A program made the position numbers and the translations under genes. Below, piece by piece: positions 7,229-37,091 of a DNA stretch of 37,091 nucleotides (position 1 is its first letter; every line of letters begins with the position of its first letter). The notes under the pieces are model-generated. The model did not search any database and was not told the origin of the DNA. It saw nothing but the letters and a program-made list of their open reading frames with translations. The stretch is from a virus. Taxonomy: Duplodnaviria; Heunggongvirae; Uroviricota; Caudoviricetes. Location of the stretch: IMG/VR virus record IMGVR_UViG_2700989362_000003; one strand, given 5' to 3'.

Positions 7229-7250
7229 GGCCGCCTGTGTGGCTTTTTTT
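7229..7250 (+). terminator. stem-loop plus T-run between D and E
   Basis: GGCCGCCTGTGTGGC hairpin (5-bp stem with one G-U pair) followed by TTTTTTT. The equivalent hairpin exists between D and E in lambda. Confidence 0.5.
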
Positions 7251-7263
7251 ACGGGATTTTTTT

Positions 7264-8289: not shown

Positions 8290-8330
8290 TCATGGCCCTT
8301 CGGGGCCATTTTCTCTCTGTGGAGGAGTTC

Positions 8331-8729: not shown

Positions 8730-8740
8730 CGGGAGGCGCT

Positions 8741-9094: not shown

Positions 9095-9105
9095 AAGGGG
9101 GATGT

Positions 9106-10076: not shown

Positions 10077-10083
10077 GGACGCT

Positions 10084-14232: not shown

Positions 14233-14558
14233 AAACCTTCCGCTGGAAAGTGAAACCCGGTATGGATGTGGCTTCGGCCCCTTCTGTAAGAAAGGTGCGC
14301 TTTGGTGATGGCTATTCCCAGCGAGCGCCTGCCGGGCTGAATGCCAACCTGAAAACGTACAGCGTGACGCTTTCTGTCCCCCGTGAGGAGGCCATGGTAC
14401 TGGAGTCGTTTCTGGAAGAGCACGGGGGCTGGAAAGCCTTTCTGTGGACGCCGCCTTATGAGTGGCGGCAGATAAAGGTGACCTGCGCAAAATGGTCGTC
14501 GCGGGTCAGTATGCTGCGTGTTGAGTTCAGCGCAGAGTTTGAACAGGTGGTGAACTGA
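14229..14558 (+). CDS. M: tail tip protein gpM
   Basis: 109-aa ORF MKTFRWKVKPGMDVASAPSVRKVRFGDGYSQRAP... overlapping the H stop. Confidence 0.9.
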   Translation: MKTFRWKVKPGMDVASAPSVRKVRFGDGYSQRAPAGLNANLKTYSVTLSVPREEAMVLESFLEEHGGWKAFLWTPPYEWRQIKVTCAKWSSRVSMLRVEFSAEFEQVVN

Positions 14559-15256: not shown

Positions 15257-15261
15257 ATCCC

Positions 15262-15982: not shown

Positions 15983-15983
15983 N
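15983..15983. other. N junction 1 (K/I 3' end joined to L interior)
   Basis: Single n. Sequence to its right restarts about 1.3 kb upstream in gene order, matching 14665 onward. Confidence 0.9.
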
Positions 15984-16575
15984 TTTTTTCTGTAATGAGC
16001 AGAACGAAAAAGGTGAGCCGGTCACCTGGCAGGGGCGACAGTATCAGCCGTATCCCATTCAGGGGAGTGGTTTTGAACTGAATGGCAAAGGCACCAGTAC
16101 GCGCCCCACGCTGATGGTTTCTAACCTGTACGGTATGGTCACCGGGATGGCGGAAGATCTACAGAGTCTGGTCGGCGGAACGGTGGTCCGGCGTAAGGTT
16201 TACGCCCGTTTTCTGGATGCGGTGAACTTCGTCAACGGAAACAGTGACGCCGATCCGGAGCAGGAGGTGATCAGCCGCTGGCGCATTGAGCAGTGCAGCG
16301 AACTGAGCGCGGTGAGTGCCTCTTTTGTACTGTCCACGCCGACGGAAACAGATGGCGCTGTTTTTCCGGGACGTATCATGCTGGCCAACACCTGCACCTG
16401 GACCTATCGCGGCGATGAGTGCGGTTATCACGGTCCGGCGGTCGCGGATGAATATGACCAGCCAACGTCCGACATCACGAAGGATAAATGCAGCAAATGC
16501 CTGAGTGGCTGTAAGTTTCGCAATAACGTCGGCAACTTTGGCGGCTTCCTTTCCATTAACAAACTTTCGCAGTAA
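15984..16575 (+). CDS. L: gpL 3' fragment, duplicate of 14665..15256
   Basis: Encodes FFCNEQNEKGEPVTWQGRQYQPYPIQG...KLSQ, identical at protein level to the first L copy. Confidence 0.85.
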
Positions 16576-16580
16576 ATCCC

Positions 16581-17324
16581 ATGACAGAGACAGAATCAGC
16601 GATTCTGGCGCACGCCCGGCGATGTGCTCCAGCGGAGTCGTGCGGCTTCGTGGTAAGAACGCCGGAGGGGGAAAGATATTTCCCCTGCGTGAATATCTCC
16701 GGTGAGCCGGAGGCGTATTTCCGTATGTCGCCGGAAGACTGGCTGCAGGCAGAGATGCAGGGTGAGATTGTGGCACTGGTCCACAGCCACCCCGGTGGTC
16801 TGCCCTGGCTGAGTGAGGCCGACCGGCGGCTGCAGGTGCAGAGTGATTTGCCGTGGTGGCTGGTCTGCCGGGGGGCGATTCACAAGTTCCGCTGTGTGCC
16901 ACATCTTACCGGGCGGCGCTTTGAGCACGGGGTGACGGACTGTTACACGCTGTTCCGGGATGCTTATCATCTGGCAGGGATTGAGATGCCGGATTTTCAT
17001 CGCGGGGATGACTGGTGGCGTAACGGTCAGAATCTCTATCTTGACAATATGGAGGTGACGGGTTTTTACCGTGTCGCACTGACAGAGGCACAGCCGGGCG
17101 ATGTGCTGCTGTGCTGTTTTGGTTCATCGGTGCCGAATCATGCCGCCATTTACTGCGGTGACGGCGGGCTGCTGCACCATATTCCTGAACAACTGAGCAA
17201 ACGAGAGAGGTACACCGACAAATGGCAGCGACGCACACACTCCCTCTGGCGTCACCGGGCATGGCGCGCATCTGCCTTTACGGGGATTTACAACGATTTG
17301 GTCGCCGCATCGACCTTCGTGTGA
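16581..17324 (+). CDS. K: tail tip assembly protein gpK, copy 2, full length 247 aa (allele b)
   Basis: Same architecture as copy 1 but a clustered patch of substitutions: ERYFPCVNISGEPEAYFRMSPEDWLQAEMQ versus DRYLPSENISGEPEERFRMAPEDWLRAQMQ. Confidence 0.9.
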   Translation: MTETESAILAHARRCAPAESCGFVVRTPEGERYFPCVNISGEPEAYFRMSPEDWLQAEMQGEIVALVHSHPGGLPWLSEADRRLQVQSDLPWWLVCRGAIHKFRCVPHLTGRRFEHGVTDCYTLFRDAYHLAGIEMPDFHRGDDWWRNGQNLYLDNMEVTGFYRVALTEAQPGDVLLCCFGSSVPNHAAIYCGDGGLLHHIPEQLSKRERYTDKWQRRTHSLWRHRAWRASAFTGIYNDLVAASTFV

Positions 17325-17863
17325 AAACGGGGGCTGAAGCCATCCGGGCACTGGCCACACAGCTCCCGGCGTTTCGTCAGAAACTGAGTGACGGCTGGTA
17401 TCAGGTGCGCATTGCCGGGCGTGATGCAGGTGAAACCGAATTGTCTGCCCGTCTTAATGAGCCGCTGGCAAATGGTGCAGTGATCCACATAGTACCGCGT
17501 CTGGTGGGAGCTAAAAGTGGCGGTGTGTTTCAGGCGGTGCTGGGGGCGGCTGTTATGGCGGTTGCTATATGGATGCCGGGGGTAGGAATTATGGCGAGTA
17601 ATCTGCTGTTTTCTCTCGGTGCCAGTATGACGCTTGGCGGTGTTGCACAGATGCTGGCACCGAAAGCCAGAACTCCCCGTACACAGACAACGGATAACGG
17701 TAAGCAGAACACGTATTTCTCGTCACTGGATAACATGGTTGCCCAGGGCAATGTTCTGCCCGTTCTGTACGGTGAAATGCGCGTGGGGTCACGTGTGGTT
17801 TCTCAGGAGATCAGCACGGCAGACGAAGGGGATGGTGGTCAGGTTGTGGTGATTGGTCGCTGA
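17222..17863 (+). CDS. I: tail tip assembly protein gpI, 213 aa
   Basis: MAATHTLPLASPGMARICLYGDLQRFGRRIDLRVKTGAEAIRALATQLPAFRQKLSDGWYQVRIAGRD... overlapping the K 3' end. The middle third differs from lambda I as I recall it. Confidence 0.9.
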   Translation: MAATHTLPLASPGMARICLYGDLQRFGRRIDLRVKTGAEAIRALATQLPAFRQKLSDGWYQVRIAGRDAGETELSARLNEPLANGAVIHIVPRLVGAKSGGVFQAVLGAAVMAVAIWMPGVGIMASNLLFSLGASMTLGGVAQMLAPKARTPRTQTTDNGKQNTYFSSLDNMVAQGNVLPVLYGEMRVGSRVVSQEISTADEGDGGQVVVIGR

Positions 17864-17882
17864 TGCAAAATGTTTTATGTGA

Positions 17883-17902
17883 AACCGCCTGCGGGCGGTT
17901 TT
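17883..17902 (+). terminator. stem-loop in the I-J intergenic region (possible attenuator)
   Basis: AACCGCCTGCGGGCGGTT hairpin followed by a T-rich stretch, 20 nt upstream of the J ribosome-binding site. A second copy lies at about 19248..19267. Confidence 0.35.
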
Positions 17903-17923
17903 GTCGTTTATGGAGCGTGAGGA

Positions 17924-18127
17924 ATGGGTAAAGGCAGCAGTAAGGGGCATACCCCGCGCGAAGCGAAGGACAACCTGAAATCCACGCAGTTGCTGAGTGT
18001 GATTGATGCCATCAGCGAAGGGCCGGTTGACGGTCCGGTGGATGGATTAAAAAGCGTGCTGCTGAACGGTACGCCGGTCCTGGACAGCGAGGGGAAGACA
18101 AACTTTTCCGGTGTTACGGTGGTGTTC
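17924..18127 (+). CDS. J: gpJ 5' fragment (68 codons) truncated at N junction
   Basis: MGKGSSKGHTPREAKDNLKSTQLLSVIDAISEGPVDGPVDGLKSVLLNGTPVLDSEGKTNFSGVTVVF, then the n at 18128. Confidence 0.85.
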
Positions 18128-18128
18128 N
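18128..18128. other. N junction 2 (J 5' end joined to K interior)
   Basis: Single n followed by K-internal sequence (EIVALVHSHPGG...). Confidence 0.9.
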
Positions 18129-18689
18129 GAGATTGTGGCACTGGTCCACAGCCACCCCGGTGGTCTGCCCTGGCTGAGTGAGGCCGACCGGCGGCTGCAG
18201 GTGCAGAGTGATTTGCCGTGGTGGCTGGTCTGCCGGGGGGCGATTCACAAGTTCCGCTGTGTGCCACATCTTACCGGGCGGCGCTTTGAGCACGGGGTGA
18301 CGGACTGTTACACGCTGTTCCGGGATGCTTACCATCTGGCGGGGATTGAGATGCCGGATTTTCATCGTGAGGATGACTGGTGGCGTCACGGTCAGAATCT
18401 CTATCTGGATAATCTGGAGGCCACAGGGCTGTATCAGGTGCCGTTGTCAGCGGCGCAGCCGGGCGATGTGCTGCTGTGCTGTTTTGGTTCATCGGTGCCG
18501 AATCATGCCGCCATTTACTGTGGTGACGGCGAGCTGCTGCACCATATTCCTGAACAACTGAGCAAACGAGAGAGGTATACCGACAAATGGCAGCGACGCA
18601 CACACTCCCTCTGGCGTCACCGGGCATGGCGCGCATCTGCCTTTACGGGGATTTACAACGATTTGGTCGCCGCATCGACCTTCGTGTGA
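18129..18689 (+). CDS. K: gpK 3' fragment, copy 3 (allele c, lambda-like)
   Basis: Encodes ...HREDDWWRHGQNLYLDNLEATGLYQVPLSAAQPGDVLL...GDGELLHH, distinct from copies 1 and 2 (HRGDDWWRNGQNLYLDNMEVTGFYRVALTEAQ...GDGGLLHH). Confidence 0.85.
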   Translation, partial: EIVALVHSHPGGLPWLSEADRRLQVQSDLPWWLVCRGAIHKFRCVPHLTGRRFEHGVTDCYTLFRDAYHLAGIEMPDFHREDDWWRHGQNLYLDNLEATGLYQVPLSAAQPGDVLLCCFGSSVPNHAAIYCGDGELLHHIPEQLSKRERYTDKWQRRTHSLWRHRAWRASAFTGIYNDLVAASTFV

Positions 18690-19228
18690 AAACGGGGGCT
18701 GAAGCCATCCGGGCACTGGCCACACAGCTCCCGGCGTTTCGTCAGAAACTGAGTGACGGCTGGTATCAGGTGCGCATTGCCGGGCGTGATGCAGGTGAAA
18801 CCGAATTGTCTGCCCGTCTTAATGAGCCGCTGGCAAATGGTGCAGTGATCCACATAGTACCGCGTCTGGTGGGAGCTAAAAGTGGCGGTGTGTTTCAGGC
18901 GGTGCTGGGGGCGGCTGTTATGGCGGTTGCTATATGGATGCCGGGGGTAGGAATTATGGCGAGTAATCTGCTGTTTTCTCTCGGTGCCAGTATGACGCTT
19001 GGCGGTGTTGCACAGATGCTGGCACCGAAAGCCAGAACTCCCCGTACACAGACAACGGATAACGGTAAGCAGAACACCTATTTCTCCTCACTGGATAACA
19101 TGGTTGCCCAGGGCAATGTTCTGCCCGTTCTGTACGGTGAAATGCGCGTGGGGTCACGTGTGGTTTCTCAGGAGATCAGCACGGCAGACGAAGGGGATGG
19201 GGGTCAGGTTGTGGTGATTGGTCGCTGA
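18587..19228 (+). CDS. I: tail tip assembly protein gpI, second full copy
   Basis: 213-aa ORF with the same protein as 17222..17863 and only silent or near-silent nucleotide differences. Confidence 0.9.
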   Translation: MAATHTLPLASPGMARICLYGDLQRFGRRIDLRVKTGAEAIRALATQLPAFRQKLSDGWYQVRIAGRDAGETELSARLNEPLANGAVIHIVPRLVGAKSGGVFQAVLGAAVMAVAIWMPGVGIMASNLLFSLGASMTLGGVAQMLAPKARTPRTQTTDNGKQNTYFSSLDNMVAQGNVLPVLYGEMRVGSRVVSQEISTADEGDGGQVVVIGR

Positions 19229-19288
19229 TGCAAAATGTTTTATGTGAAACCGCCTGCGGGCGGTTTTGTCGTTTATGGAGCGTGAGGA

Positions 19289-21131
19289 ATGGGTAAAGGC
19301 AGCAGTAAGGGGCATACCCCGCGCGAAGCGAAGGACAACCTGAAATCCACGCAGTTGCTGAGTGTGATTGATGCCATCAGCGAAGGGCCGGTTGACGGTC
19401 CGGTGGATGGATTAAAAAGCGTGCTGCTGAACGGTACGCCGGTCCTGGACAGCGAGGGGAAGACAAACTTTTCCGGTGTTACGGTGGTGTTCCGTGCAGG
19501 TGAGCAGGAGCAGACACCGCCGGAGGGTTTTGAATCCTCCGGCTCCGAGACGGTGCTGGGTACGGAAGTGAAATATGACACGCCGATCACCCGGACCATC
19601 ACGTCGGCAAACATCGACCGTCTGCGCCTGACCTTCGGTGTGCAGGCACTGGTGGAAACCACCTCAAAGGGTGACCGGAATCCGTCGGAAGTCCGCCTGC
19701 TGGTTCAGATACAGCGTAACGGTGGCTGGGTGACGGAAAAAGACATCACCATTAAGGGCAAAACCACCTCGCAGTATCTGGCCTCGGTGGTGGTGGATAA
19801 CCTGCCGCCGCGCCCGTTTAATATCCGGATGCGCAGAATGACGCCGGACAGCACCACAGACCAGCTGCAGAACAAAACGCTCTGGTCGTCATACACCGAA
19901 ATCATCGATGTGAAACAGTGCTACCCGAACACGGCGCTGGTCGGCGTGCAGGTGGATTCAGAGCAGTTCGGTAACCAGCAGGTGAGTCGCAATTATCATC
20001 TTCGCGGGCGCATTCTGCAGGTGCCGTCGAACTATAATCCGCAGACGCGGCAATACAGCGGTATCTGGGACGGAACGTTAAAACCGGCATACAGCAACAA
20101 CATGGCCTGGTGTCTGTGGGACATGCTCACTCATCCGCGCTACGGCATGGGGAAACGTCTTGGTGCGGCAGATGTGGATAAATGGGCGCTGTATGTCATC
20201 GGCCAGTACTGCGACCAGTCAGTGACGGACGGATTTGGCGGCACGGAGCCGCGCATCACCTGTAACTCTTACCTGACCACACAGCGTAAGGCGTGGGATG
20301 TTCTCAGTGATTTCTGCTCGGCGATGCGCTGTATGCCGGTATGGAACGGACAGATGCTGACGTTCGTGCAGGACCGACCGTCGGATAAGGTGTGGACCTA
20401 TAACCGCAGTAATGTGGTGATGCCGGACGATGGCGCGCCGTTCCGCTACAGCTTCAGCGCCCTGAAGGACCGCCATAATGCCGTTGAGGTGAACTGGATT
20501 GACCCAGATAACGGCTGGGAGACGGCGACAGAGCTTGTGGAGGATACGCAGGCCATTGCCCGTTACGGTCGTAATGTCACGAAGATGGATGCCTTTGGCT
20601 GTACCAGCCGGGGGCAGGCACACCGAGCCGGGCTGTGGCTGATTAAAACGGAACTGCTGGAAACGCAGACCGTGGACTTCAGCGTGGGCGCAGAAGGGCT
20701 TCGCCATGTACCGGGTGATGTCATTGAAATCTGCGATGATGATTATGCCGGTATCAGCACCGGTGGTCGCGTACTGGCGGTGAACAGCCAGACCCGGACG
20801 CTGACGCTCGACCGTGAAATCACGCTGCCGTCCTCCGGTACCACGCTGATAAGCCTGGTTGACGGAAGTGGCAATCCGGTCAGCGTGGAGGTCCAGTCCG
20901 TCACCGACGGCGTGAAGGTGAAAGTGAGCCGGGTTCCTGACGGCGTTGCAGAATACAGCGTGTGGGGGCTGAAGCTGCCGACGCTGCGCCAGCGTCTGTT
21001 CCGCTGCGTGAGTATCCGTGAGAACGACGACGGCACGTATGCCATCACCGCCGTGCAGCATGTGCCGGAAAAAGAGGCCATCGTGGATAACGGGGCACAC
21101 TTTGACGGTGACCGGCGCGGCACGGTGAATG
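19289..21131 (+). CDS. J: central tail fiber/host specificity protein gpJ, 5' 614 codons, truncated at N junction
   Basis: Starts MGKGSSKGHTPREAKDNLK..., co-linear with the lambda J N-terminal and central regions up to ...[11 protein letters not shown], then the n at 21132. Confidence 0.9.
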
Positions 21132-23092: not shown

Positions 23093-25047
23093 CTGACCAC
23101 ACAGCGCAAGGCGTGGGATGTGCTCAGTGATTTCTGCTCGGCGATGCGCTGTATGCCGGTATGGAACGGGCAGACGCTGACGTTCGTGCAGGACCGACAG
23201 TCGGATAAGGTGTGGGCCTATAACCGCAGTAATGTGGTGATGCCGGATGATGGCGCGCCGTTCCGCTACAGTTTCAGCGCCCTGAAAGACCGCCATAATG
23301 CCGTTGAGGTGAACTGGATTGACCCGGATAACGGCTGGGAGACGGCGACAGAGCTTGTGGAGGATACGCAGGCCATTGTCCGTTACGGTCGTAACGTCAC
23401 GAAGATGGATGCCTTTGGCTGTACCAGCCGGGGGCAGGCACACCGCGCCGGGCTGTGGCTGATTAAAACGGAACTGCTGGAGACGCAGACCGTGGATTTC
23501 AGCGTGGGTGCTGAAGGGCTTCGTCATGTACCGGGCGATGTCATTGAAATCTGCGATGATGACTATGCCGGTATCCGCACCGGCGGGCGCGTGCTGGCGG
23601 TGAACAGCCAGACCCGGACGCTGACGCTCGACCGTGAAATCACGCTGCCGTCCTCCGGTACCACGCTGATAAGCCTGGTTGACGGAAGTGGCAATCCGGT
23701 CAGCGTGGAGGTCCAGTCCGTCACCGACGGCGTGAAGGTGAAAGTGAGCCGGGTTCCTGACGGCGTTGCAGAATACAGCGTGTGGGGGCTGAAGCTGCCG
23801 ACGCTGCACCAGCGATTGTTCCGCTGCGTGAGTATCCGTGAGAACGACGACGGCACGTATGCCATCACCGCCGTGCAGCATGTGCCGGAAAAAGAGGCCA
23901 TCGTGGATAACGGGGCACACTTTGACGGTGACCGGCGCGGCACGGTGAATGGTGTCACGCCGCCAGCGGTGCAGCACCTGACTGCCGAAGTCACCGCAGA
24001 CAGCGGGGAATATCAGGTGCTGGCGCGCTGGGACACGCCGAAGGTGGTGAAGGGTGTGAGCTTCCTGCTTCGCCTGACCGTGGCAGCGGACGACGGCAGT
24101 GAGCGGCTGGTCAGCACAGCCAGGACGACGGAAACCACATACCGCTTCAGGCAGCTGGCGCTGGGGAATTACAGTCTGACAGTCCGGGCGGTAAATGCCC
24201 GGGGGCAGCAGGGCGATCCGGCGTCGGTATCGTTCCGGATTGCGGCACCGGCAGCGCCTGTCACTATTGAACTGATACCGGGGTATTTTCAGATAACGGC
24301 GGTCCCGAAACTGGCTGTATATGACCCGACGGTGCAGTTTGAGTTCTGGTTTTCGGAAAAGCGGATTGCGGATATCAGGCAGGTTGAAACCAGCGCCCGC
24401 TATCTTGGCACGGCGCTGTACTGGATAGCCGCCAGTATCAATATCAGGCCGGGCCATGATTATTATTTTTACGTTCGCAGTGTGAACACCGTTGGCAAAT
24501 CGGCATTTGTGGAGGCCATCGGTCGGGCGAGCGATGATGCAGAAGGTTATCTGAATTTTTATAAAGGGTTGATCAATAAAACGCATCTCGGCAAGGAGTT
24601 GTGGACGCAGATTGATAACGGTCAGCTTGCGCCGGACCTGACTGAAATCAGGACGTCCATTACGAATGTCAGCAATGAAATCACGCAAACCGTCAATAAA
24701 AAACTGGAAAATCAGAGTGCTGCAATCCAGCAGATACAGAAAGTTCAGGTTGATACAAATAATAACCTGAACAGCATGTGGGCTGTGAAGCTGCAACAGA
24801 TGAAGGACGGACGCCTTTATATTGCGGGTATCGGTGCCGGTATTGAGAATACGCCAGCAGGAATGCAGAGTCAGGTGCTGCTGGCGGCAGACAGGATTGC
24901 GATGATTAATCCTGCGAATGGCAACACAAAGCCGATGTTTGTTGGTCAGGGCGATCAGATATTCATGAACGACGTGTTCCTGAAATGCCTGACGGCTCCG
25001 ACCATTACCAGCGGCGGTAATCCTCCGGCATTTTCCCTGACACCTGG
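23093..25047 (+). CDS. J: gpJ internal fragment (about codons 328-980)
   Basis: J frame from [24 protein letters not shown]... through ...[23 protein letters not shown]. Carries the [27 protein letters not shown]... central segment. Confidence 0.85.
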
Positions 25048-25048
25048 N
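25048..25048. other. N junction 5
   Basis: Single n. Sequence restarts at about J codon 370 ([15 protein letters not shown]). Confidence 0.9.
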
Positions 25049-26102
25049 CCTATAACCGCAGTAATGTGGTGATGCCGGATGATGGCGCGCCGTTCCGCTA
25101 CAGTTTCAGCGCCCTGAAAGACCGCCATAATGCCGTTGAGGTGAACTGGATTGACCCGGATAACGGCTGGGAGACGGCGACAGAGCTTGTGGAGGATACG
25201 CAGGCCATTGTCCGTTACGGTCGTAACGTCACGAAGATGGATGCCTTTGGCTGTACCAGCCGGGGGCAGGCACACCGCGCCGGGCTGTGGCTGATTAAAA
25301 CGGAACTGCTGGAGACGCAGACCGTGGATTTCAGCGTGGGTGCTGAAGGGCTTCGTCATGTACCGGGCGATGTCATTGAAATCTGCGATGATGACTATGC
25401 CGGTATCCGCACCGGCGGGCGCGTGCTGGCGGTGAACAGCCAGACCCGGACGCTGACGCTCGACCGTGAAATCACGCTGCCATCCTCCGGCACCACGCTG
25501 ATAAGCCTGGTTGACGGGCAGGGGAATCCGGTCAGCGTGGAGGTCCAGTCCGTCACCGACGGCGTGAAGGTAAAAGTGAGCCGTGTTCCTGACGGTGTTG
25601 CTGAATACAGCGTGTGGGGGCTGAAGCTGCCGACGCTGCACCAGCGATTGTTCCGCTGCGTGAGTATCCGTGAGAACGACGACGGCACGTATGCCATCAC
25701 CGCCGTGCAGCATGTGCCGGAAAAAGAAGCCATCGTGGATAACGGGGCGCACTTTGACGGCGACCAGAGCGGCACGGTGAATGGTGTCACGCCGCCAGCG
25801 GTGCAGCACCTGACTGCCGAAGTCACCGCAGACAGCGGGGAATATCAGGTGCTGGCGCGCTGGGACACGCCGAAGGTGGTGAAGGGCGTGAGCTTCCTGC
25901 TCCGTCTGACCGTAACAGCGGATGACGGCAGTGAGCGGCTGGTCAGCACGGCCCGGACGACGGAAACCACTTACCGCTTCACACAACTGGCGCTGGGGAA
26001 CTACAGGCTGACAGTCCGGGCAGTAAATGCGTGGGGGCAGCAGGGCGATCCGGCGTCGGTATCGTTCCGGATTGCGGCACCGGCAGCGCCTGTCACTATT
26101 GA
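25049..26102 (+). CDS. J: gpJ internal fragment (about codons 370-720)
   Basis: J frame from [31 protein letters not shown]... to ...APAAPVTI, followed by the 21-N gap. Confidence 0.85.
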
Positions 26103-26123
26103 NNNNNNNNNNNNNNNNNNNNN
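26103..26123. other. assembly gap (21 N)
   Basis: Run of 21 n characters. Confidence 0.95.
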
Positions 26124-26158
26124 TATTCCCCGCTGTCTGCGGTGACTTCGGCAGTCAG
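26124..26158. repeat. 35-nt foldback: inverted copy of the adjacent J sequence, probably a chimeric-read or assembly artefact
   Basis: TATTCCCCGCTGTCTGCGGTGACTTCGGCAGTCAG is the exact reverse complement of the J segment CTGACTGCCGAAGTCACCGCAGACAGCGGGGAATA (seen at 25811..25845 and elsewhere), and is followed directly by the normal downstream J sequence. Confidence 0.7.
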
Positions 26159-27748
26159 GTGCTGGCGCGCTGGGACACGCCGAAGGTGGTGAAGGGCGTG
26201 AGCTTCCTGCTCCGTCTGACCGTAACAGCGGATGACGGCAGTGAGCGGCTGGGCAGCACGGCCCGGACGACGGAAACCACTTACCGCTTCACACAACTGG
26301 CGCTGGGGAACTACAGGCTGACAGTCCGGGCAGTAAATGCGTGGGGGCAGCAGGGCGATCCGGCGTCGGTATCGTTCCGGATTGCCGCACCGGCAGCGCT
26401 GTCGCGGATTGAGCTGACGCCGGGCTATTTTCAGATAACCGCCACGCCGCATCTTGCGGTTTATGATCCGACGGTACAGTTTGAGTTCTGGTTCTCGGAA
26501 AAGCGGATTGCGGATATCAGGCAGGTTGAAACCACAGCACGCTATCTTGGCACGGCGCTGTACTGGATAGCCGCCAGTATCAATATCAGGCCGGGCCATG
26601 ATTATTATTTTTACGTTCGCAGTGTGAACACCGTTGGCAAATCGGCATTTGTGGAGGCCATCGGTCGGGCGAGCGATGATGCAGAAGGTTATCTGAATTT
26701 TTATAAAGGGTTGATCAATAAAACGCATCTCGGCAAGGAGTTGTGGACGCAGATTGATAACGGTCAGCTTGCGCCTGACCTGGCTGAAATCAGGACGTCC
26801 ATTACGGATGTCAGCAATGAAATCACGCAGACCGTCAATAAGAAACTGGAAGACCAGAGTGCGGCAATTCAGCAGATACAGAAGGTTCAGGTTGATACAA
26901 ATAATAACCTGAACAGCATGTGGGCTGTGAAGCTGCAGCAGATGCAGGACGGACGCCTTTATATCGCGGGTATTGGTGCCGGTATTGAGAACACCCCTGA
27001 CGGCATGCAGAGTCAGGTGCTGCTGGCGGCGGACAGGATTGCGATGGTTAATCCTGCGAATGGCAACACAAAACCGATGTTTGTTGGTCAGGGCGATCAG
27101 ATATTCATGAACGACGTGTTCCTGAAACGCCTGACGGCCCCCACCATTACCAGCGGTGGAAATCCATCGGCATTTTCCCTGACTCCGGACGGAAAGCTGA
27201 CCGCTAAAAATGCGGATATCAGTGGCAGTGTGAATGCGAACGCCGGGACGCTCAACAATGTCACGGTAAATGAAAACTGTACGATTAAGGGCATGCTGGA
27301 GGCGACTCAGGTCAGAGGTGACTTCGTTAAAGCTGTATCCAAATCATTTCCGAAACAGGCTGGTACGTGGGGTAACACGGAAACACCAAACGGGACGGTT
27401 ACAGTCACCATAAGCGATGATCATAACTTTGACCGCCAGATTATTATTCCGCCCATTATTTTTAACGGTATAGCGTATGACGATCCGGGGAGCGGAAATA
27501 ACCCAGGAGGCACGCGATACACGGGTTATGGTTTTGAAGTTCGCAAAAACGGCGTATTAATCGCATCCAGAGAAACTAAAGGTGCCATTCCCGGTAGTTA
27601 CAGTGCAGTTATTGATATGCCTAGTGGTGGTGGTAGCGTCACTCTGGAGTTTAAGATTTTCCAGAAAGGCAATCAGGGGGCAGGCAATATCACCGACTGT
27701 ACGGTGATTGTGACCAAAAAAGCGGCTTCCGGCATCAGTATTCGTTGA
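26159..27748 (+). CDS. J: gpJ 3' fragment including the C-terminal receptor-binding domain, allele 1 (ends ...[12 protein letters not shown])
   Basis: J frame from [20 protein letters not shown]... to the stop at 27748. The last roughly 200 aa ([57 protein letters not shown]...) differ from both the other allele in this window and lambda J as I recall it. Confidence 0.85.
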
Positions 27749-27770
27749 AATATTTATAACCCCAATAAAT

Positions 27771-27794
27771 GGCGTCAGGAATGACGCCTTTTTT
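27771..27794 (+). terminator. intrinsic terminator after J
   Basis: GGCGTCA GGAA TGACGCC perfect 7-bp stem followed by TTTTTT, 25 nt after the J stop and before the lom ribosome-binding site. Confidence 0.6.
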
Positions 27795-27818
27795 ATTGCA
27801 GAAAAGCGAGAGGTAATT

Positions 27819-28113
27819 ATGCGTAAAGTTTGTGCAGCCATTTTGTCCGCAGCCATTTGCCTGGCCGTATCCGGTGCGCCTGCATGGGCGTCTGAACATC
27901 AGTCCACGCTGAGCGCGGGGTATCTTCATGCCCGGACCAACGTTCCCGGCAGTGATGATCTGAACGGGATTAACGTGAAATACCGTTATGAGTTTACGGA
28001 TACGCTGGGGCTGGTGACGTCATTCAGCTATGCAGGAGACAAGAATCGCCAGCTGACCCGTTACAGCGATACCCGCTGGCATGAAGATTCCGTGCGTAAC
28101 CGCTGGTTCAGCG
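27819..28113 (+). CDS. lom: lom 5' fragment (98 codons), loop variant 1, truncated at N junction
   Basis: MRKVCAAILSAAICLAVSGAPAWA signal peptide, then SEHQSTLSAGYLHARTNVPGSDDLNGINVKYRYEF... This differs from the other lom copies (YLQTHTDMPGSDDLKGI) in the first predicted loop. Confidence 0.8.
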
Positions 28114-28114
28114 N
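28114..28114. other. N junction 6 (lom interior joined to J interior)
   Basis: Single n followed by J-internal sequence ([21 protein letters not shown]...). Confidence 0.9.
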
Positions 28115-29653
28115 AAGGGCGTGAGCTTCCTGCTCCGTCTGACCGTAACAGCGGATGACGGCAGTGAGCGGCTGGGCAGCACGGCCCGGACGACGGAAAC
28201 CACTTACCGCTTCACACAACTGGCGCTGGGGAACTACAGGCTGACAGTCCGGGCAGTAAATGCGTGGGGGCAGCAGGGCGATCCGGCGTCGGTATCGTTC
28301 CGGATTGCCGCACCGGCAGCGCTGTCGCGGATTGAGCTGACGCCGGGCTATTTTCAGATAACCGCCACGCCGCATCTTGCGGTTTATGATCCGACGGTAC
28401 AGTTTGAGTTCTGGTTCTCGGAAAAGCGGATTGCGGATATCAGGCAGGTTGAAACCACAGCACGCTATCTTGGCACGGCGCTGTACTGGATAGCCGCCAG
28501 TATCAATATCAAACCGGGCCATGATTATTACTTTTATATCCGCAGTGTGAACACCGTTGGCAAATCGGCATTCGTGGAGGCTGTTGGTCAGCCGAGTGAT
28601 GATGCATCCGGTTATCTGGATTTTTTCAAAGGCGAGATAGGGAAAACCCATCTGGCTCAGGAGCTGTGGACGCAGATTGATAACGGTCAGCTTGCGCCGG
28701 ACCTGACTGAAATCAGGACGTCCATTACGAATGTCAGCAATGAAATCACGCAAACCGTCAATAAAAAACTGGAAAATCAGAGTGCTGCAATCCAGCAGAT
28801 ACAGAAAGTTCAGGTTGATACAAATAATAACCTGAACAGCATGTGGGCTGTGAAGCTGCAACAGATGAAGGACGGACGCCTTTATATTGCGGGTATCGGT
28901 GCCGGTATTGAGAATACGCCAGCAGGAATGCAGAGTCAGGTGCTGCTGGCGGCAGACAGGATTGCGATGATTAATCCTGCGAATGGCAACACAAAGCCGA
29001 TGTTTGTTGGTCAGGGCGATCAGATATTCATGAACGACGTGTTCCTGAAATGCCTGACGGCTCCGACCATTACCAGCGGCGGTAATCCTCCGGCATTTTC
29101 CCTGACACCTGGCGGACGGCTGACGGCGAAAAATGCCGATATCAGCGGTAACGTGAACGCGAACTCCGGGACGCTCAACAACGTCACGATTAATAAGAAC
29201 TGTCGGGTTCTGGGAAAATTGTCCGCGAACCAGATTGAAGGCGATCTCGTTAAAACAGTGGGCAAACCTTTCCCACGGGACTCCCGGGCACCGGAGAGGT
29301 GGCCATCAGGGACCATTACCGTCAGGGTTTATGACGATCAGCCGTTTGATCGGCAAATTGTTATTCCCGCGGTGGCGTTTCGCGGTGCTAAACATGAGCG
29401 GAAGAATAACAATATTTATTCGTCATGCCGCCTGATAGTGAAGAAAAACGGTGCTGAAATTTATAACCGAACGACCCTGGATAATACGCTGATATATACG
29501 GGTGTTATTGATATGCCTGCCGGTCACGGTCACATGACGCTGGAGTTTTCTGTATCGGCATGGCTGGTAAATGGCTGGTATCCCACAGCAAGTATCAGCG
29601 ATTTGCTGGTTGTGGTGATGAAGAAAGCCACTGCAGGCATCACGATTAGCTGA
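28115..29653 (+). CDS. J: gpJ 3' fragment including the C-terminal receptor-binding domain, allele 2 (ends ...[11 protein letters not shown])
   Basis: J frame to the stop at 29653. C-terminal region [95 protein letters not shown]... is distinct from allele 1. Central segment variant [20 protein letters not shown]. Confidence 0.85.
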
Positions 29654-29672
29654 ATTTTATAACCCAGATACG

Positions 29673-29696
29673 GGCACCAGAAATGGTGCCTTTTTT
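29673..29696 (+). terminator. intrinsic terminator after J (allele 2 context)
   Basis: GGCACC AGAAAT GGTGCC stem-loop followed by TTTTTT. An identical element is at 30964..30987. Confidence 0.6.
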
Positions 29697-29720
29697 ATTG
29701 CAGAAAAGCGAGAGGTAATT

Positions 29721-30203
29721 ATGCGTAAAGTTTGTGCAGCCATTTTGTCCGCAGCCATCTGTCTGGCCGTATCCGGTGCGCCTGCATGGGCGTCTGAACA
29801 TCAGTCCACGCTGAGCGCCGGGTATCTTCAGACCCATACTGATATGCCAGGCAGCGATGACCTGAAGGGCATTAACGTGAAATACCGTTATGAGTTTACG
29901 GATACGCTGGGGCTGGTGACGTCATTCAGCTATGCAGGAGACAAGAATCGCCAGCTGACCCGTTACAGCGATACCCGCTGGCATGAAGATTCCGTGCGTA
30001 ACCGCTGGTTCAGCGTGATGGCGGGGCCGTCTGTGCGCGTGAATGAATGGTTCAGCGCGTATGCGATGGCGGGTGTGGCTTACAGCCGTGTGTCGACTTT
30101 TTCCGGGGATTATATCCGCGTAACTGACAATAAGGGGAAAACGCACGATGTGCTGACCGGAAGTGATGACGGTCGCCACAGCAACACGTCTCTGGCGCAC
30201 TGA
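29721..30203 (+). pseudogene. lom: lom carrying an 83-bp internal deletion, frameshifted with premature stop (160 aa instead of 199)
   Basis: Co-linear with the full lom at 31012..31611 until ...SNTSLA. The 83 bp TGGGGGGCTGGCGTG...GTGGTGACTGGCG present in the full copy are missing, and a 5-bp direct repeat TGGCG flanks the deleted segment there. The frame then reads H and stops, losing the C-terminal strands and the terminal ...GYKF. Confidence 0.75.
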
Positions 30204-30264
30204 CGGTTTCATCGTGGGTGTCGGTTATAAATTCTGATTAGCCAGGTAACACAGTGTTATGACA

Positions 30265-30290
30265 GCCCGCCGGTTCAGGCGGGCTTTTTT
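30265..30290 (+). terminator. intrinsic terminator after lom
   Basis: GCCCGCC GGTTCA GGCGGGC stem-loop followed by TTTTTT. Identical elements are at 31639..31664 and 32579..32604. Confidence 0.6.
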
Positions 30291-30301
30291 GTGGGGTGAA
30301 T

Positions 30302-30858
30302 ATGGCAGTAAAGATTTCAGGTGTACTGAAAGACGGCACAGGAAAACCGGTACAGAACTGCACAATCCAGCTGAAAGCAAAACGTAACAGCACCACGGTG
30401 GTGGTGAACACGCTGGCCTCAGAAAATCCGGATGAAGCCGGGCGTTACAGCATGGACGTTGAGTACGGTCAGTACAGCGTTATTCTGTTGGTGGAAGGAT
30501 TCCCGCCGTCACATGCCGGGACCATCACCGTGTATGAAGATTCCCGACCCGGTACGCTGAATGATTTTCTCGGTGCCATGACGGAGGATGATGCCCGTCC
30601 GGAGGCACTGCGCCGTTTTGAGCTGATGGTGGAAGAGGTGGCGCGTAACGCGTCCGCGGTGGCACAGAACACGGCAGCCGCGAAGAAATCAGCCAGCGAT
30701 GCCAGCACATCAGCCCGTGAGGCGGCAACCCATGCGACTGATGCTGCAGATTCAGCACGTGCAGCCAGCACGTCAGCCGGACAGGCCGCTTCGTCGGCTC
30801 AGTCAGCGTCTTCCAGCGCAGGAACGGCATCAACAAAGGCCACTGAAGCCTCAAAAAG
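30302..30858 (+). CDS. stf: side tail fiber stf 5' fragment truncated at N junction
   Basis: [57 protein letters not shown]..., identical to the N-terminus of the full stf at 32616. The track starts the ORF at an upstream GTG (30296). Confidence 0.85.
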
Positions 30859-30859
30859 N
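30859..30859. other. N junction 7 (stf interior joined to J 3' end)
   Basis: Single n followed by the last 28 codons of J allele 2 ([27 protein letters not shown]). Confidence 0.9.
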
Positions 30860-30944
30860 AAATGGCTGGTATCCCACAGCAAGTATCAGCGATTTGCTGG
30901 TTGTGGTGATGAAGAAAGCCACTGCAGGCATCACGATTAGCTGA
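30860..30944 (+). CDS. J: gpJ 3'-terminal fragment (allele 2 type)
   Basis: Identical to 29569..29653. Confidence 0.8.
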
Positions 30945-31011
30945 ATTTTATAACCCAGATACGGGCACCAGAAATGGTGCCTTTTTTATTGCAGAAAAGC
31001 GAGAGGTAATT

Positions 31012-31611
31012 ATGCGTAAAGTTTGTGCAGCCATTTTGTCCGCAGCCATCTGTCTGGCCGTATCCGGTGCGCCTGCATGGGCGTCTGAACATCAGTCCAC
31101 GCTGAGCGCCGGGTATCTTCAGACCCATACTGATATGCCAGGCAGCGATGACCTGAAGGGCATTAACGTGAAATACCGTTATGAGTTTACGGACACGCTG
31201 GGGCTGATTACGTCATTCAGTTATGCCAACGCTGAAGATGAGCAAAAAACGCATTACAGCGATACCCGCTGGCATGAGGATTCCGTGCGTAACCGCTGGT
31301 TCAGCGTGATGGCGGGGCCGTCTGTGCGCGTGAATGAATGGTTCAGCGCGTATGCGATGGCGGGCGTGGCTTACAGCCGTGTGTCGACCTTCTCCGGGGA
31401 TTATCTCCGCGTAACTGACAACAAGGGGAAAACGCACGATGTGCTGACCGGAAGTGATGGCGGTCGCCACAGCAACACGTCTCTGGCGTGGGGGGCTGGC
31501 GTGCAGTTTAACCCGACCGAATCCGTGGCCATTGACCTTGCTTATGAAGGTTCCGGCAGTGGTGACTGGCGCACTGACGGTTTCATCGTGGGTGTCGGTT
31601 ATAAATTCTGA
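31012..31611 (+). CDS. lom: outer membrane protein Lom (Ail/Lom family), full length 199 aa, loop variant 3
   Basis: Signal peptide plus beta-barrel OMP signature ending ...DWRTDGFIVGVGYKF. Has a loop-2 variant SFSYANAEDEQKTHYSD versus SFSYAGDKNRQLTRYSD in the other copies. Confidence 0.9.
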   Translation: MRKVCAAILSAAICLAVSGAPAWASEHQSTLSAGYLQTHTDMPGSDDLKGINVKYRYEFTDTLGLITSFSYANAEDEQKTHYSDTRWHEDSVRNRWFSVMAGPSVRVNEWFSAYAMAGVAYSRVSTFSGDYLRVTDNKGKTHDVLTGSDGGRHSNTSLAWGAGVQFNPTESVAIDLAYEGSGSGDWRTDGFIVGVGYKF

Positions 31612-31675
31612 TTAGCCAGGTAACACAGTGTTATGACAGCCCGCCGGTTCAGGCGGGCTTTTTTGTGGGGTGAAT

Positions 31676-32002
31676 ATGGCAGTAAAGATTTCAGGTGTAC
31701 TGAAAGATGGGGCGGGGAAACCTGTCGTAAATTGTGCGATTGAACTGCGGGCCAGAAGAACCAGTCCGACCGTTGTGGCACACGTTGTTGCCACTTGCGT
31801 GACGGACAATAACGGTGCTTATGTGATTGAGGCTGAGCCGGGGTATTACGAGGTTGCGCTTCACTGTAACGGCTGGCAGCCAACCCGTGTCGGGGATATT
31901 GATGTGGCACCGACTGATGCACCGGGGACACTGAACGCGTTTCTGAATGCACCAAAGGATGGTGATTTACGTCCGGAGGTGATGAAGTGTCAGCGCCAGT
32001 GA
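31676..32002 (+). pseudogene. stf: second stf allele (divergent N-terminal domain), truncated after about 108 codons, apparently by an IS insertion
   Basis: [102 protein letters not shown], then MKCQRQ-stop. It is followed by non-stf sequence that encodes a transposase N-terminus. Confidence 0.7.
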
Positions 32003-32088
32003 TATAAGACGGTAATTCGCCATTTGGATTGTCCGCTCCACCCAACATGTTGTTTCCTTAAGGTTCTCACACCAGAAAGGACATCAAC

Positions 32089-32231
32089 ATGCTGAGCAGA
32101 GAGGACTTTTACATGATAAAGCAAATGCGCCAGCAGGGCGCGTACATCGTCGATATTGCGACTCAGATTGGTTGCTCTGAACGGACGGTCAGACGCTACC
32201 TCAAATACCCTGAACCGCCAGCCAGAAAGAC
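32089..32231 (+). mobile_element. IS21-family-like transposase (IstA-type) 5' fragment, truncated at N junction. The IS left boundary is uncertain, possibly near 31988 (TGTCAG...)
   Basis: MLSREDFYMIKQMRQQGAYIVDIATQIGCSERTVRRYLKYPEPPARK has an N-terminal helix-turn-helix with the pattern seen in IS21-family IstA proteins (compare IS100 ...[39 protein letters not shown] from memory). Confidence 0.5.
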
Positions 32232-32232
32232 N
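32232..32232. other. N junction 8 (IS fragment joined to lom interior)
   Basis: Single n followed by lom-internal sequence (TSFSYAGDKNRQLTRYSD...). Confidence 0.9.
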
Positions 32233-32517
32233 ACGTCATTCAGCTATGCAGGAGACAAGAATCGCCAGCTGACCCGTTACAGCGATACCCGCTGGCATGA
32301 AGATTCCGTGCGTAACCGCTGGTTCAGCGTGATGGCGGGGCCGTCTGTGCGCGTGAATGAATGGTTCAGCGCGTATGCGATGGCGGGTGTGGCTTACAGC
32401 CGTGTGTCGACCTTCTCCGGGGATTATCTCCGCGTAACTGACAACAAGGGGAAAACGCACGATGTGCTGACCGGAAGTGATGACGGTCGCCACAGCAACA
32501 CGTCTCTGGCGCACTGA
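32233..32517 (+). pseudogene. lom: lom 3' fragment carrying the same 83-bp deletion as 29721..30203
   Basis: Reads ...SNTSLAH-stop, as in the copy at 29721..30203. The original lom stop and terminator follow downstream. Confidence 0.75.
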
Positions 32518-32615
32518 CGGTTTCATCGTGGGTGTCGGTTATAAATTCTGATTAGCCAGGTAACACAGTGTTATGACAGCCCGCCGGTTCAGGCGGGCTT
32601 TTTTGTGGGGTGAAT

Positions 32616-35600
32616 ATGGCAGTAAAGATTTCAGGTGTACTGAAAGACGGCACAGGAAAACCGGTACAGAACTGCACAATCCAGCTGAAAGCAAAACGTA
32701 ACAGCACCACGGTGGTGGTGAACACGCTGGCCTCAGAAAATCCGGATGAAGCCGGGCGTTACAGCATGGACGTTGAGTACGGTCAGTACAGCGTTATTCT
32801 GTTGGTGGAAGGATTCCCGCCGTCACATGCCGGGACCATCACCGTGTATGAAGATTCCCGACCCGGTACGCTGAATGATTTTCTCGGTGCCATGACGGAG
32901 GATGATGCCCGTCCGGAGGCACTGCGCCGTTTTGAGCTGATGGTGGAAGAGGTGGCGCGTAACGCGTCCGCGGTGGCACAGAACACGGCAGCCGCGAAGA
33001 AATCAGCCAGCGATGCCAGCACATCAGCCCGTGAGGCGGCAACCCATGCGACTGATGCTGCAGATTCAGCACGTGCAGCCAGCACGTCAGCCGGACAGGC
33101 CGCTTCGTCGGCTCAGTCAGCGTCTTCCAGCGCAGGAACGGCATCAACAAAGGCCACTGAAGCCTCAAAAAGTGCTGCCGCTGCAGAGTCCTCAAAAAGC
33201 GCGGCGGCTACCAGTGCCGGTGCGGCGAAAACGTTAGAAACGAATGCGGCAGCGTCACAACAATCAGCAGCCACTTCTGCATCCACCGCGACCACGAAAG
33301 CGTCAGAAGCTGCCACCTCAGCCCGGGATGCGTCGGCTTCAAAAGAGGCGGCAAAATCATCAGAAACGAACGCATCATCAAGCGCCAGTAGCGCAGCTTC
33401 CTCGGCGACGGCGGCTGCAAATTCTGCGAAGGCGGCCAAAACGTCCGAGACGAACGCCAGGTCTTCTGAAACGGCAGCGGGACAGAGTGCCTCAGCTGCG
33501 GCAGGCTCAAAAACAGCGGCTGCGTCGTCTGCCAGCGCCGCGTCAACAAGTGCCGGGCAGGCCTCAGCCAGTGCCACCGCCGCCGGAAAATCGGCAGAAA
33601 GCGCCGCATCATCCGCTTCAACAGCCACAACGAAGGCTGGCGAAGCCACTGAGCAGGCCACGGCAGCAGCGAGGTCAGCTTCCGCAGCGAAGACATCCGA
33701 AACGAACGCGAAAGCGTCGGAAACCCGTGCAGAATCCTCAAAAACGGCTGCCGCATCGTCCGCCAGTTCGGCGGCGTCATCGGCATCATCGGCGTCTGCT
33801 TCAAAAGATGAGGCGACCAGACAGGCGTCAGCAGCGAAGGGCAGCGCCACGACGGCATCCACGAAGGCGACAGAGGCTGCTGGTAGTGCGACGGCAGCAG
33901 CTCAGAGCAAAAGTACGGCGGAATCTGCAGCAACGCGCGCTGAGACAGCGGCAAAACGGGCAGAGGATATTGCATCCGCCGTGGCGCTTGAGGATGCGAG
34001 CACGACGAAAAAGGGGATAGTACAGCTCAGTAGTGCGACTAACAGCACTTCCGAGTCACTGGCGGCAACACCAAAAGCCGTTAAGGCCGCGTATGACCTG
34101 GCTAACGGGAAATACACCGCACAGGATGCAACGACAGCACAGAAAGGGATAATCCAGCTAAGCAGCGCGACCAACAGCACGTCTGAAACGCTGGCGGCAA
34201 CGCCAAAGGCAGTAAAAGCAGCCAATGACAATGCTGAGAAACGTCTGCAGAAAGATCAGAACGGTGCGGATATCCCTGGCAAAGACACCTTTACGAAAAA
34301 TATTGGTGCCTGCCGTGCCTTCGGTGGGTCAGTAAGCACAACAACAGGAAACTGGACGACTGCACAGTTTATCGAGTGGCTGGATTCTCAGGGAGCATTT
34401 AACCATCCATACTGGATGTGCAAGGGTTCCTGGTCTTATGGCAATAATAAAATCATTACTGATACTGGCTGCGGTAATATTCATCTCGCCGGAGCTGTCA
34501 TTGAAGTAATGGGGATAAAGTCAGCGATGACGATCCGCATTACCACTCCGACCACATCCAGCGGTGGCGGAACAACCAACGCCCAGTTTACCTATATTAA
34601 TCACGGAACAGATTATTCACCTGGCTGGCGAAGGGACTATAACTCCAGAAATAAGCCAACGGCATCAGAGATCGGGGCGCTACCGTCAGGTGGAACAGCA
34701 GTATCATCAGTTAATCTGGCTTCAAAAGGTCGGGTAGCCGCGCTGACAGACAATACGCAGGGGGCAGCAGGTCTTGAGTTATACGAGGTGTATAACAACG
34801 GATATCCAACAGCGTATGGAAATATCATTCACCTGAAAGGGATGACAGCCGTTGGCGAAGGTGAGTTACTCATCGGCTGGGGGGGGACAAGCGGGGCTCA
34901 TGCTCCGGCATTTATTCGTTCACGACGGGATACGACCGACGCAAACTGGTCGCCGTGGGCGCAGCTTTACACCTCGGCTCATCCTCCTGCAGAGTTTTAT
35001 CCAGTCGGTGCACCAATCCCGTGGCCATCAGATACCGTTCCGTCTGGTTATGCCCTGATGCAGGGGCAGACTTTTGACAAATCTGCTTACCCGAAACTTG
35101 CAGCCGCTTATCCGTCAGGCGTGATCCCTGATATGCGTGGCTGGACGATTAAGGGCAAGCCCGCCAGTGGTCGTGCCGTATTGTCTCAGGAACAGGATGG
35201 CATTAAATCGCACACCCACAGCGCCAGCGCATCCAGTACGGATTTGGGGACGAAAACCACATCGTCGTTTGATTACGGCACTAAATCCACGAATAACACC
35301 GGGGCGCATACGCACAGTCTGAGCGGCTCTACAAGTTCAGCTGGGGCCCACCAACATAGTCAGACTGGGCCCAGAACGAATAGCGGGAGTCAACCTACTG
35401 GAATGTTTCCGGCAGGGAGTACTCAAGTTAGCGGGACTAATCAGGTTGGTATCAGTGGCTCATTAACCAGTGGCACCTCCCAATGGGTAGGTAAATCATC
35501 TTCAGAAGGAAACCATACACACTCACTGTCCGGCACAGCAGCATCTGCGGGTGCACACGCGCATACTGTCGGTATTGGTGCTCATACGCACTCTGTTGCG

Positions 35601-35699
35601 ATTGGTTCACATGGACACACCATCACCGTTAACGCTGCTGGTAACGCGGAAAACACCGTCAAAAACATCGCATTTAACTATATTGTGAGGCTCGCATAA
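32616..35699 (+). CDS. stf: side tail fiber protein Stf, about 1027 aa
   Basis: Lambda-type Stf N-terminus, then a long Ala/Ser/Thr-rich low-complexity shaft, two copies of the tail-fiber repeat KGI(V/I)[11 protein letters not shown](S/T)[11 protein letters not shown], a roughly 300-aa Cys-containing central domain ([10 protein letters not shown]...WMCKGSW...[10 protein letters not shown]...), and a C-terminal tip with multiple HxH motifs ending ...[11 protein letters not shown]. The track ORF starts at an upstream GTG (32610). Confidence 0.9.
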
Positions 35700-36280
35700 T
35701 GGCATTCAGAATGAGTGAACAAGCACGGACCATAAAAATTTATAACCTGCTGGCCGGAACTAATGAATTTATTGGTGAAGGTGACGCATATATTCCGCCT
35801 CATACAGGTCTGCCTGCAAACAGTACCGATATTGCACCGCCAGATATTCCGGCTGGTTTCGTGGCTGTTTTCAACAGTGATGAGTCATCGTGGCATCTCG
35901 TTGAAGATCATCGGGGTAAAACGGTTTATGACGTGGCTTCCGGCGACGCGTTATTTATTTCTGAACTCGGCTCATTACCGGAAAATGTCACCTGGTTATC
36001 CCCGGAAGGGGAGTTTCAGAAGTGGAACGGCACAGCCTGGGTGAAGGATACGGAAGCAGAAAAACTGTTCCGGATCCGGGAGGCGGAAGAAACAAAAAAC
36101 AGCCTGATGCAGGTAGCCAGTGAGCATATAGCGCCGCTTCAGGATGCTGTGGATCTGGAGATCGCAACGGAGAAAGAAACCTTGTTGCTGGAAGCTTGGA
36201 AAAAGTATCGGGTGTTGCTGAACCGTGTTGATACATCAACTGCACCGGATATTGAATGGCCAGTAGCACCTATAGGGTAA
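35699..36280 (+). CDS. tfa: tail fiber assembly chaperone Tfa
   Basis: 193-aa [57 protein letters not shown]..., overlapping the stf stop in a TAATG arrangement. Near-identical to lambda Tfa as I recall it. Confidence 0.9.
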
Positions 36281-36363
36281 ATTCGTAATGATTACCTAAA
36301 TACGTTATTCTTTTGTTAAAAAAGTGATTTTGCTATAGGTAGGGAGTATGTTCTTGGATTAAG

Positions 36364-36397
36364 AATAAAAAATCGCCATGAAAGAGCTTCATGGCGA
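36364..36397 (-). terminator. candidate intrinsic terminator for a minus-strand transcript
   Basis: Perfect 10-bp inverted repeat TCGCCATGAA AGAGC TTCATGGCGA (36373..36397) preceded on the plus strand by AATAAAAAA, so on the minus strand it is a hairpin followed by a U-run. Confidence 0.45.
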
Positions 36398-36545
36398 GTA
36401 CATAAACGTACAAAATGTGATGAAAGTAGAGTGGCGTAAGCCACTATATTAAGATATGACAATAGCGAAGAAAAGTAAATAACATTTTATGGACGTTTAA
36501 TTGTTAATTATAAAAACTAGAGTGCCCGATATTGTTTATCTTGCT

Positions 36546-36647
36546 TTAAAATAATGTACTCAAACCAAATTTTTGAGCTAAAAGCTCAAATAATATAAAT
36601 GCAATAATAATGTTTAATAAGACAATTAGCTTGCTTTGTATTTTCAT
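36546..36647 (-). CDS. candidate small hydrophobic protein, 33 aa (MKIQSKLIVLLNIIIAFILFELLAQKFGLSTLF)
   Basis: Hand-translated minus-strand ORF, below the 60-aa cutoff of the ORF track. Single predicted transmembrane helix. About 150 nt upstream (in transcript sense) of the minus-strand terminator. No obvious Shine-Dalgarno, and AT-rich DNA can produce such ORFs by chance. Confidence 0.3.
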   Translation of the reverse strand: MKIQSKLIVLLNIIIAFILFELLAQKFGLSTLF

Positions 36648-37029
36648 TTCGGAATACTGTTAAGTAACTTTGATGACCCTAACAATAGATCGGAATTTTC
36701 TTAGAGTCAATGGTCACTGTTTTTGCTTGCAAAGCAAATGTTTTGGTGGTTATAAGTCGTCTTAATATAGTCACGCATGCAACTTGTTCCATGCGGAGAT
36801 TAAAGATTGGAATATAACGCGAAGATGGAATTAAATTACATTTGCAATAATTAATTTATTATTACTCAATAATTACCGATATTATTATTGTAAATTAATC
36901 ATTAGAATGCAAAAAGAAATGTAACGGCAAAATAAGAGGACGATAGCTGAGAAAAAAGCGTGCTTTCCCAATCTGGGGCAAATCACGTCTGAATGACACC
37001 TGAAAACAGGTGGTAGCCTCAAGAAGGCT

Positions 37030-37091
37030 GGTGATGCTGCCAACTTACTGATTTAGTGTATGATGGTGTTTTTGAGGTGCTCCAGTGGCTT
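37030..37091 (+). mobile_element. IS1 left end (terminal inverted repeat plus first 62 bp), running off the window
   Basis: GGTGATGCTGCCAACTTACTGATTTAGTGTATGATGGTGTTTTTGAGGTGCTCCAGTGGCTT matches the IS1 left end, including the start of insA (GTGGCTT...), as I recall it. Confidence 0.8.

Follow-up and report, generated by a model that had tools for sequence, protein, structure and literature searches.

The 37,091-nucleotide (nt) stretch of Caudoviricetes DNA analysed here (IMG/VR record IMGVR_UViG_2700989362_000003; hereafter the window) carries two different receptor-binding ends of the phage tail-tip protein gpJ, the product of gene J. An initial annotation had taken these for two J copies in one locus that encodes at least two tail-tip specificities. 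No single locus of this kind exists: ten pieces were scaffolded to give the window, and in a complete chromosome that holds both ends the two J genes lie about 690 kb apart. We are confident in reading the window as a draft-assembly scaffold made from the contigs of two distant prophages, each of which contributes one ordinary gpJ receptor-binding end, the first of the phage 434/OmpC type (allele 1) and the second of the VT1-Sakai/PPompW type (allele 2).

The two C-termini quoted in the initial annotation are present, in open reading frames (ORFs) that end at 27748 and 29653, but neither belongs to a whole gene. What is present in each case is a 3' fragment, 530 codons long for the first and 512 for the second, that starts at a contig join (a 21-N gap at 26103-26123 and a single N at 28114, respectively). 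A full-length J gene, of some 1130-1165 codons between I and lom, is absent from the window and present in the complete chromosome CP104423.1. The Pfam models Ig_J, Ig_J_second, Phage_Tail_Tip and Ig_GpJ_C all score above their gathering thresholds in both fragments, whose features are as follows.

26155-27748, plus strand: J fragment with allele 1, 530 codons plus stop (Pfam).
27275-27745, plus strand: allele 1 receptor-binding domain, 157 amino acids (aa), phage 434 type.
28115-29653, plus strand: J fragment with allele 2, 512 codons plus stop (Pfam).
29198-29650, plus strand: allele 2 receptor-binding domain, 151 aa, VT1-Sakai/PPompW type.

The virion module of the window is lambda-like and extends from Nu1 to tfa, and from about 14.6 kb onwards the sequences of K, I, J, lom and stf are repeated several times. 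It contains 29 N characters, namely eight single Ns (at 15983, 18128, 21132, 23092, 25048, 28114, 30859 and 32232) and the one 21-N run. These nine joins delimit ten pieces, A to J, and there are no Ns elsewhere. At each of the nine joins the gene order, measured in lambda coordinates, jumps backwards in the middle of a gene. The pieces overlap one another by at least 300 nt at 96-100% identity, and their start coordinates increase strictly, both on lambda and on the complete prophage of CP104423.1 (locus L004, below). The joins and pieces around the two J ends are:

23093-25047, plus strand: piece E, mid-J, ending in a prophage-2-type central segment (GYLNFYKG...KCL); 24031-25047 is 100% identical to L008, the second locus described below.
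26103-26123, no strand: 21-N gap between pieces F and G, across which the lambda coordinate drops from 17654 to 17409.
26124-26173, no strand: fold-back with which piece G opens, immediately behind the 21-N gap; it repeats the J coding sequence of 25795-25844 as its reverse complement.
26124-28113, plus strand: piece G, the 3' part of J (allele 1) and the 5' part of lom.
26565-26765, plus strand: prophage-2-type patch within the otherwise prophage-1-type piece G, from k-mer painting; a cluster of mismatches to L004 lies at 26589-26741, with amino-acid differences.
28114, no strand: single N between pieces G and H, with lom codon ~98 before it and J codon ~645 after it.
28115-30858, plus strand: piece H, a mosaic of prophage-1 type (28115-28688), prophage-2 type (28675-29894) and again prophage-1 type (29879-30858).
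30860-32231, plus strand: piece I, in which prophage 2 genuinely continues, 99.6% identical to L008; it has, on the same strand, the 3' end of J (30861-30944), lom in intact form (31012-31611), what remains of stf (31670-32002) and the beginning of a transposase gene of an insertion sequence (IS; 32089-32231).
32233-37091, plus strand: piece J, in which prophage 1 genuinely continues, 99.8% identical to L004, with the 3' end of lom, stf (1029 aa) and tfa.

Both sources are found in CP104423.1, a complete 4.82-Mb chromosome from this lineage, probably that of a Shigella sonnei. An exact copy of the 853-aa tape-measure protein of the window lies at 1.29-1.31 Mb, in a full lambda-like prophage (prophage 1, L004) that has one K, one I and one J of 1165 aa, and also a lom remnant, a 1027-aa stf and tfa. 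The 199-aa Lom of the window (31012-31611) is found exactly at 1.99-2.01 Mb (prophage 2, L008), where a remnant with the order M-L-K-I-J-lom and a J of 1159 aa lies between IS transposase genes. The ~690 kb quoted above separates the J ends of these two loci, which are different prophages with one J each. Pieces A, F and J are 99.6-99.8% identical to L004. The interval 26742-28113, which contains the allele 1 domain, is 100% identical to L004, and 28665-29902, which contains the allele 2 domain, is 100% identical to L008; the last 338 aa of the allele 1 fragment equal the end of the 1165-aa J, and the last 332 aa of the allele 2 fragment that of the 1159-aa J. The remnant with its exact Lom also occurs in CP023645.1, CP102341.1 and CP019689.1. 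The last of these is Shigella sonnei 75/02, and because it has the identical Lom, the source genome is most likely S. sonnei or a very close relative. That CP104423 is missing from the E. coli RefSeq set agrees with a Shigella origin.

The window was painted with 25-mers (k = 25) taken from L004 and L008 alone. Outside both loci lie 25-56 k-mers per piece, and all remaining k-mers are found in one locus or the other; the painting switches between the two loci one to nine times within each piece. Pieces C, D, E and F all span one common part of J, and the two loci account for the content of these four pieces. The initial annotation had described three variants of the central J segment, and strings of three kinds do occur (pieces E, G and H). 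The complete chromosome has only two: the true J1 (L004) combines a central segment bearing KRL with the 434-type end, and the true J2 (L008) one bearing KCL with the Sakai-type end. Piece G holds a J2 patch inside J1, and piece H starts as J1, continues with the middle and end of J2 and then passes into the lom and stf of prophage 1, so that the two pieces, compared with the actual J1 and J2, have reciprocally exchanged a patch of ~200 nt. Judged by these sequences, the three central variants are two real ones plus reciprocal chimeras. Assembly is a far better explanation of the chimeric pieces than natural gene conversion, because of the N joins, the sorted order of the pieces and their redundancy.

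The source genome would thus have a lambda-like tail region at each of two distant sites, the two being paralogues, one in a complete prophage and one in an IS-flanked remnant. Since the two regions have long near-identical stretches in common, a short-read assembly would break there into overlapping and partly chimeric contigs, and these would then have been sorted by the point at which each begins on a reference and strung together with Ns in between, a procedure that we infer from the product. The fold-back at 26124-26173 is likewise read as an assembly artefact.

A genuine multi-copy locus would require tandem, partly deleted K-I-J-lom units, produced for example by IS elements, with the Ns as ambiguous base calls. 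In its favour, many E. coli genomes have up to 19 J-like places, and in S. sonnei 75/02 (CP019689.1, locus L012) the remnant M-L-K-I-J-lom occurs at 4069-10600 and again at 13486-20017 of the locus, 9.4 kb apart. This tandem may have arisen in nature by IS-mediated duplication or, since the 75/02 genome was scaffolded with SSPACE (PMC5447701), may be a scaffolding artefact. Even taken as real, it consists of whole units with IS genes between them, unlike the window, where codons of K, J and lom are interrupted and neither an IS nor a repeat marks the junctions. Each break in collinearity lies exactly at an N, and there is no N without a break; the pieces are sorted by reference start, for which the chance is about 1 in 10! 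orderings; and two loci suffice for the k-mer content although four pieces overlap one part of J. We therefore regard a multi-copy locus as highly improbable.

Redundant, slightly different contigs would also arise if pieces from two or more strains or phages had been sequenced together, as in a contaminated or metagenomic sample. However, both haplotypes, with the exact proteins, occur together in the single chromosome CP104423.1, and no k-mers require a third source. One genome is enough, so a mixed sample is unnecessary, and we give it very little credence. A programmed host-range switch, in which J C-termini are exchanged by inversion as in the Gin system of Mu or the Cin system of P1, or diversified by a retroelement, is suggested only by the superficial resemblance of successive alternative C-termini to a cassette array, and can be practically dismissed: such inversion systems have flanking inverted repeats and an invertase gene, whereas here all copies are direct, the sole inverted repeat within 25000-33000 is the 50-nt contig-edge fold-back (94% complementary), no invertase or reverse-transcriptase ORF was found among the ORFs of at least 100 aa in 14000-37091, and each locus of the complete genome has a single J and is free of cassettes.

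To compare the receptor-binding ends, the domain was taken from the NCT/NCR motif to the end of J (151-157 aa). Lambda J (NC_001416, 15505-18903) ends in ...VQVMVIKKQALGISVV, as given in the initial annotation, and both ends differ from it as stated there: over the domain, allele 1 is 41% and allele 2 is 40% identical to lambda J, and neither closely matches lambda residues ~981-1132, the LamB-binding type. The alleles are not misassembled halves of one sequence, but distinct homologous ends that are 43% identical to each other. Upstream of the NCT/NCR motif the J sequence is >90% identical to lambda; the upstream domains are the same as in lambda, in contrast to the receptor-binding domain. 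The latter is nevertheless homologous to the lambda gpJ domain (PDB 8iyk and 8xcj; receptor LamB), and common to lambda and both alleles are the N-terminal strand (NCT..G.L.A...GD.VK), DD..FDRQI, DMP.G.G and, at the very end, KK...GI.. (two residues after GI). The suggestion that the receptors are probably not LamB thus stands in so far as neither domain is of the lambda type and allele 1 falls with a phage that uses OmpC; for allele 2 it is plausible.

Allele 1 is nearly identical to the C-terminal domain of phage 434 J, with 150 of 157 aa identical (95.5%; seven substitutions) and 93.7% nucleotide identity over the last 599 nt. In phage 434 (OL657226.1, J at 15505-18918) the gene order K-I-J-lom-stf is the same as here; mid-J and the remainder of the allele 1 prophage are mosaic relative to it. 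Replacement of lambda J by the 434 gene gives a phage that binds OmpC, the receptor of 434 (PMC11101478). Given the 95.5% identity of the domains, the receptor of allele 1 is very probably OmpC.

Allele 2 is nearly identical to the J domain of VT1-Sakai (140 of 151 aa, 92.7%). J proteins of this VT1-Sakai (Sp15)/PPompW type come from prophages of E. coli O157 and other Shiga toxin-producing E. coli (AP000400.1 and the LC5678xx records). Matches to the allele 2 domain at 80% or more aa identity were found in 57 phage records; plaque-forming phages are among them, and the domain type occurs in the plaque-forming vB_EcoS-640R1, 2G7b, PhiR46_1 and PhiR55_1. Unlike the VT1-Sakai-type phages, allele 2 in CP104423.1 belongs to a remnant that lacks head genes and is bordered by IS genes. 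The J of this remnant (L008, 6454-9933) retains an intact frame of 1159 codons despite the loss of the head genes and most tail genes.

The best sequence match in the PDB for both alleles is A8 gpJ (9wca and 9wcb), the sequence of which was taken from the PDB; entry 9wcb holds A8 gpJ together with three OmpC chains. A8 is an engineered lambda J chimera that uses OmpC (PMC11338833). It is the closest relative of allele 2 with a known receptor, at 64% domain identity (46% for allele 1). The receptor-binding domain of the Stx2a phage phi330 (PV189401; L015, 20011-20610) differs hardly at all from that of A8, a near-identity that connects two independent studies, and for phi330 the dependence on OmpC has been demonstrated by knockout and complementation (PMC12502783). 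The A8/phi330 J belongs to the same Ig_GpJ_C fold family as both alleles, but is a different sub-type from either, and the contact loops may differ. The 64% identity to A8 gpJ weakly suggests that allele 2 possibly binds OmpC or another general porin. LamB is the native receptor of phage 21. No published receptor for the allele 2 type was found in the literature on the ECOR PhiR phages, a receptor-prediction preprint and phage 21. It is conceivable, though we think it rather unlikely, that allele 2 recognises an outer-membrane protein other than LamB, OmpC and OmpF, the known receptors of J proteins of the lambda family. Weaker still is a second possibility, that the source strain really has recombinant J genes derived from gene conversion between its two prophages.

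Docking of the J C-terminal domain on the LamB trimer is established for lambda (PMC11101478). By analogy, the C-terminal domain of a J trimer at the tail tip would dock on a trimeric outer-membrane porin, and docking would trigger opening of the tail. With head genes and most tail genes missing from the remnant in the related complete genome, the allele 2 prophage is unable to build a virion alone and is a recombination reservoir at most.

Several observations weigh against the account given here of a scaffold with two ordinary J ends. In the collection of genome contigs nothing matched the exact sequence that spans the N at 28114; either the source record is probably no species representative, or an N does not match an N there. 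Prophages recombine, and the source strain could hold additional, naturally recombinant J copies. Copy number can vary, given that the remnant appears twice in tandem in 75/02. As to the receptors, the assignment of allele 1 to OmpC is drawn from a domain that differs from that of 434 at seven positions, and the searchable literature yielded no published receptor for phages more than 88% identical to allele 2.

The features of the neighbouring lom and stf genes are:

27819-28113, plus strand: 5' fragment of lom, truncated by the contig join, with Ail/Lom family annotation under its matches.
29721-30203, plus strand: lom shortened to 160 aa, of prophage-1 type from ~29879.
30296-30858, plus strand: 5' fragment of stf, a duplicate of 32610-33172.

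The lom of the complete prophage (29721-30203 and 32233-32517) encodes 160 aa and ends in ...SNTSLAH, while that of the remnant is intact at 199 aa. At the shortened lom the matches in E. coli are 83 nt longer, which suggests a deletion in the complete prophage. The stf of the remnant prophage is cut after ~110 codons and followed by an IS transposase start (MLSREDFYMIKQMRQQGAYIV...; window 31670-32231, L008 10600-14500); the transposase starting MLSREDFYMIKQMRQQGAYIV is presumably IS21/IstA-like. The 1029-aa stf at 32610-35699 contains an Ala/Ser/Thr-rich low-complexity stretch of ~300 aa, from which long spurious ORFs arise on both strands (33113-33975). Further spurious reading frames stem from the assembly: the fold-back creates an ORF start at 26027, and a 437-aa 'K-L fusion' ORF (15262-16575) arises solely because the single N at 15983 places mid-L directly behind the end of K.

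The prevalence of the two domain types was estimated from DNA searches, with the domain only, of 5426 complete E. coli genomes. The allele 1 type is present in 2113 of these (39%) and the allele 2 type in 3378 (62%). Most of these matches are 90-99% identical, and their annotation reads gpJ or host specificity protein J. The number of J-like places per genome has a median of 3 and a maximum of 19. Each type is moreover annotated in more than 100 phage records, which does not bear out the novelty implied by the initial annotation. Because the types are widespread and annotated, and because genomes have several J-like places, both domain types are to be regarded as already known and their joint presence in one genome as ordinary.

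Swapping of J C-terminal domains among lambdoid prophages, and polylysogens with several J types, are textbook mosaicism. The biological weight of the two J ends is accordingly small, since they combine known biology with an assembly artefact. For the very common Sakai-type domain, experimental assignment of the receptor would fill a small but useful gap. The window serves mainly as a warning: draft joins of a single N can place paralogous prophage fragments side by side and so mimic a multi-allele 'host-range locus'. Such joins yield chimeric J sequences that are absent from the organism, and a catalogue that draws its receptor-binding alleles from records of this kind would list too many.

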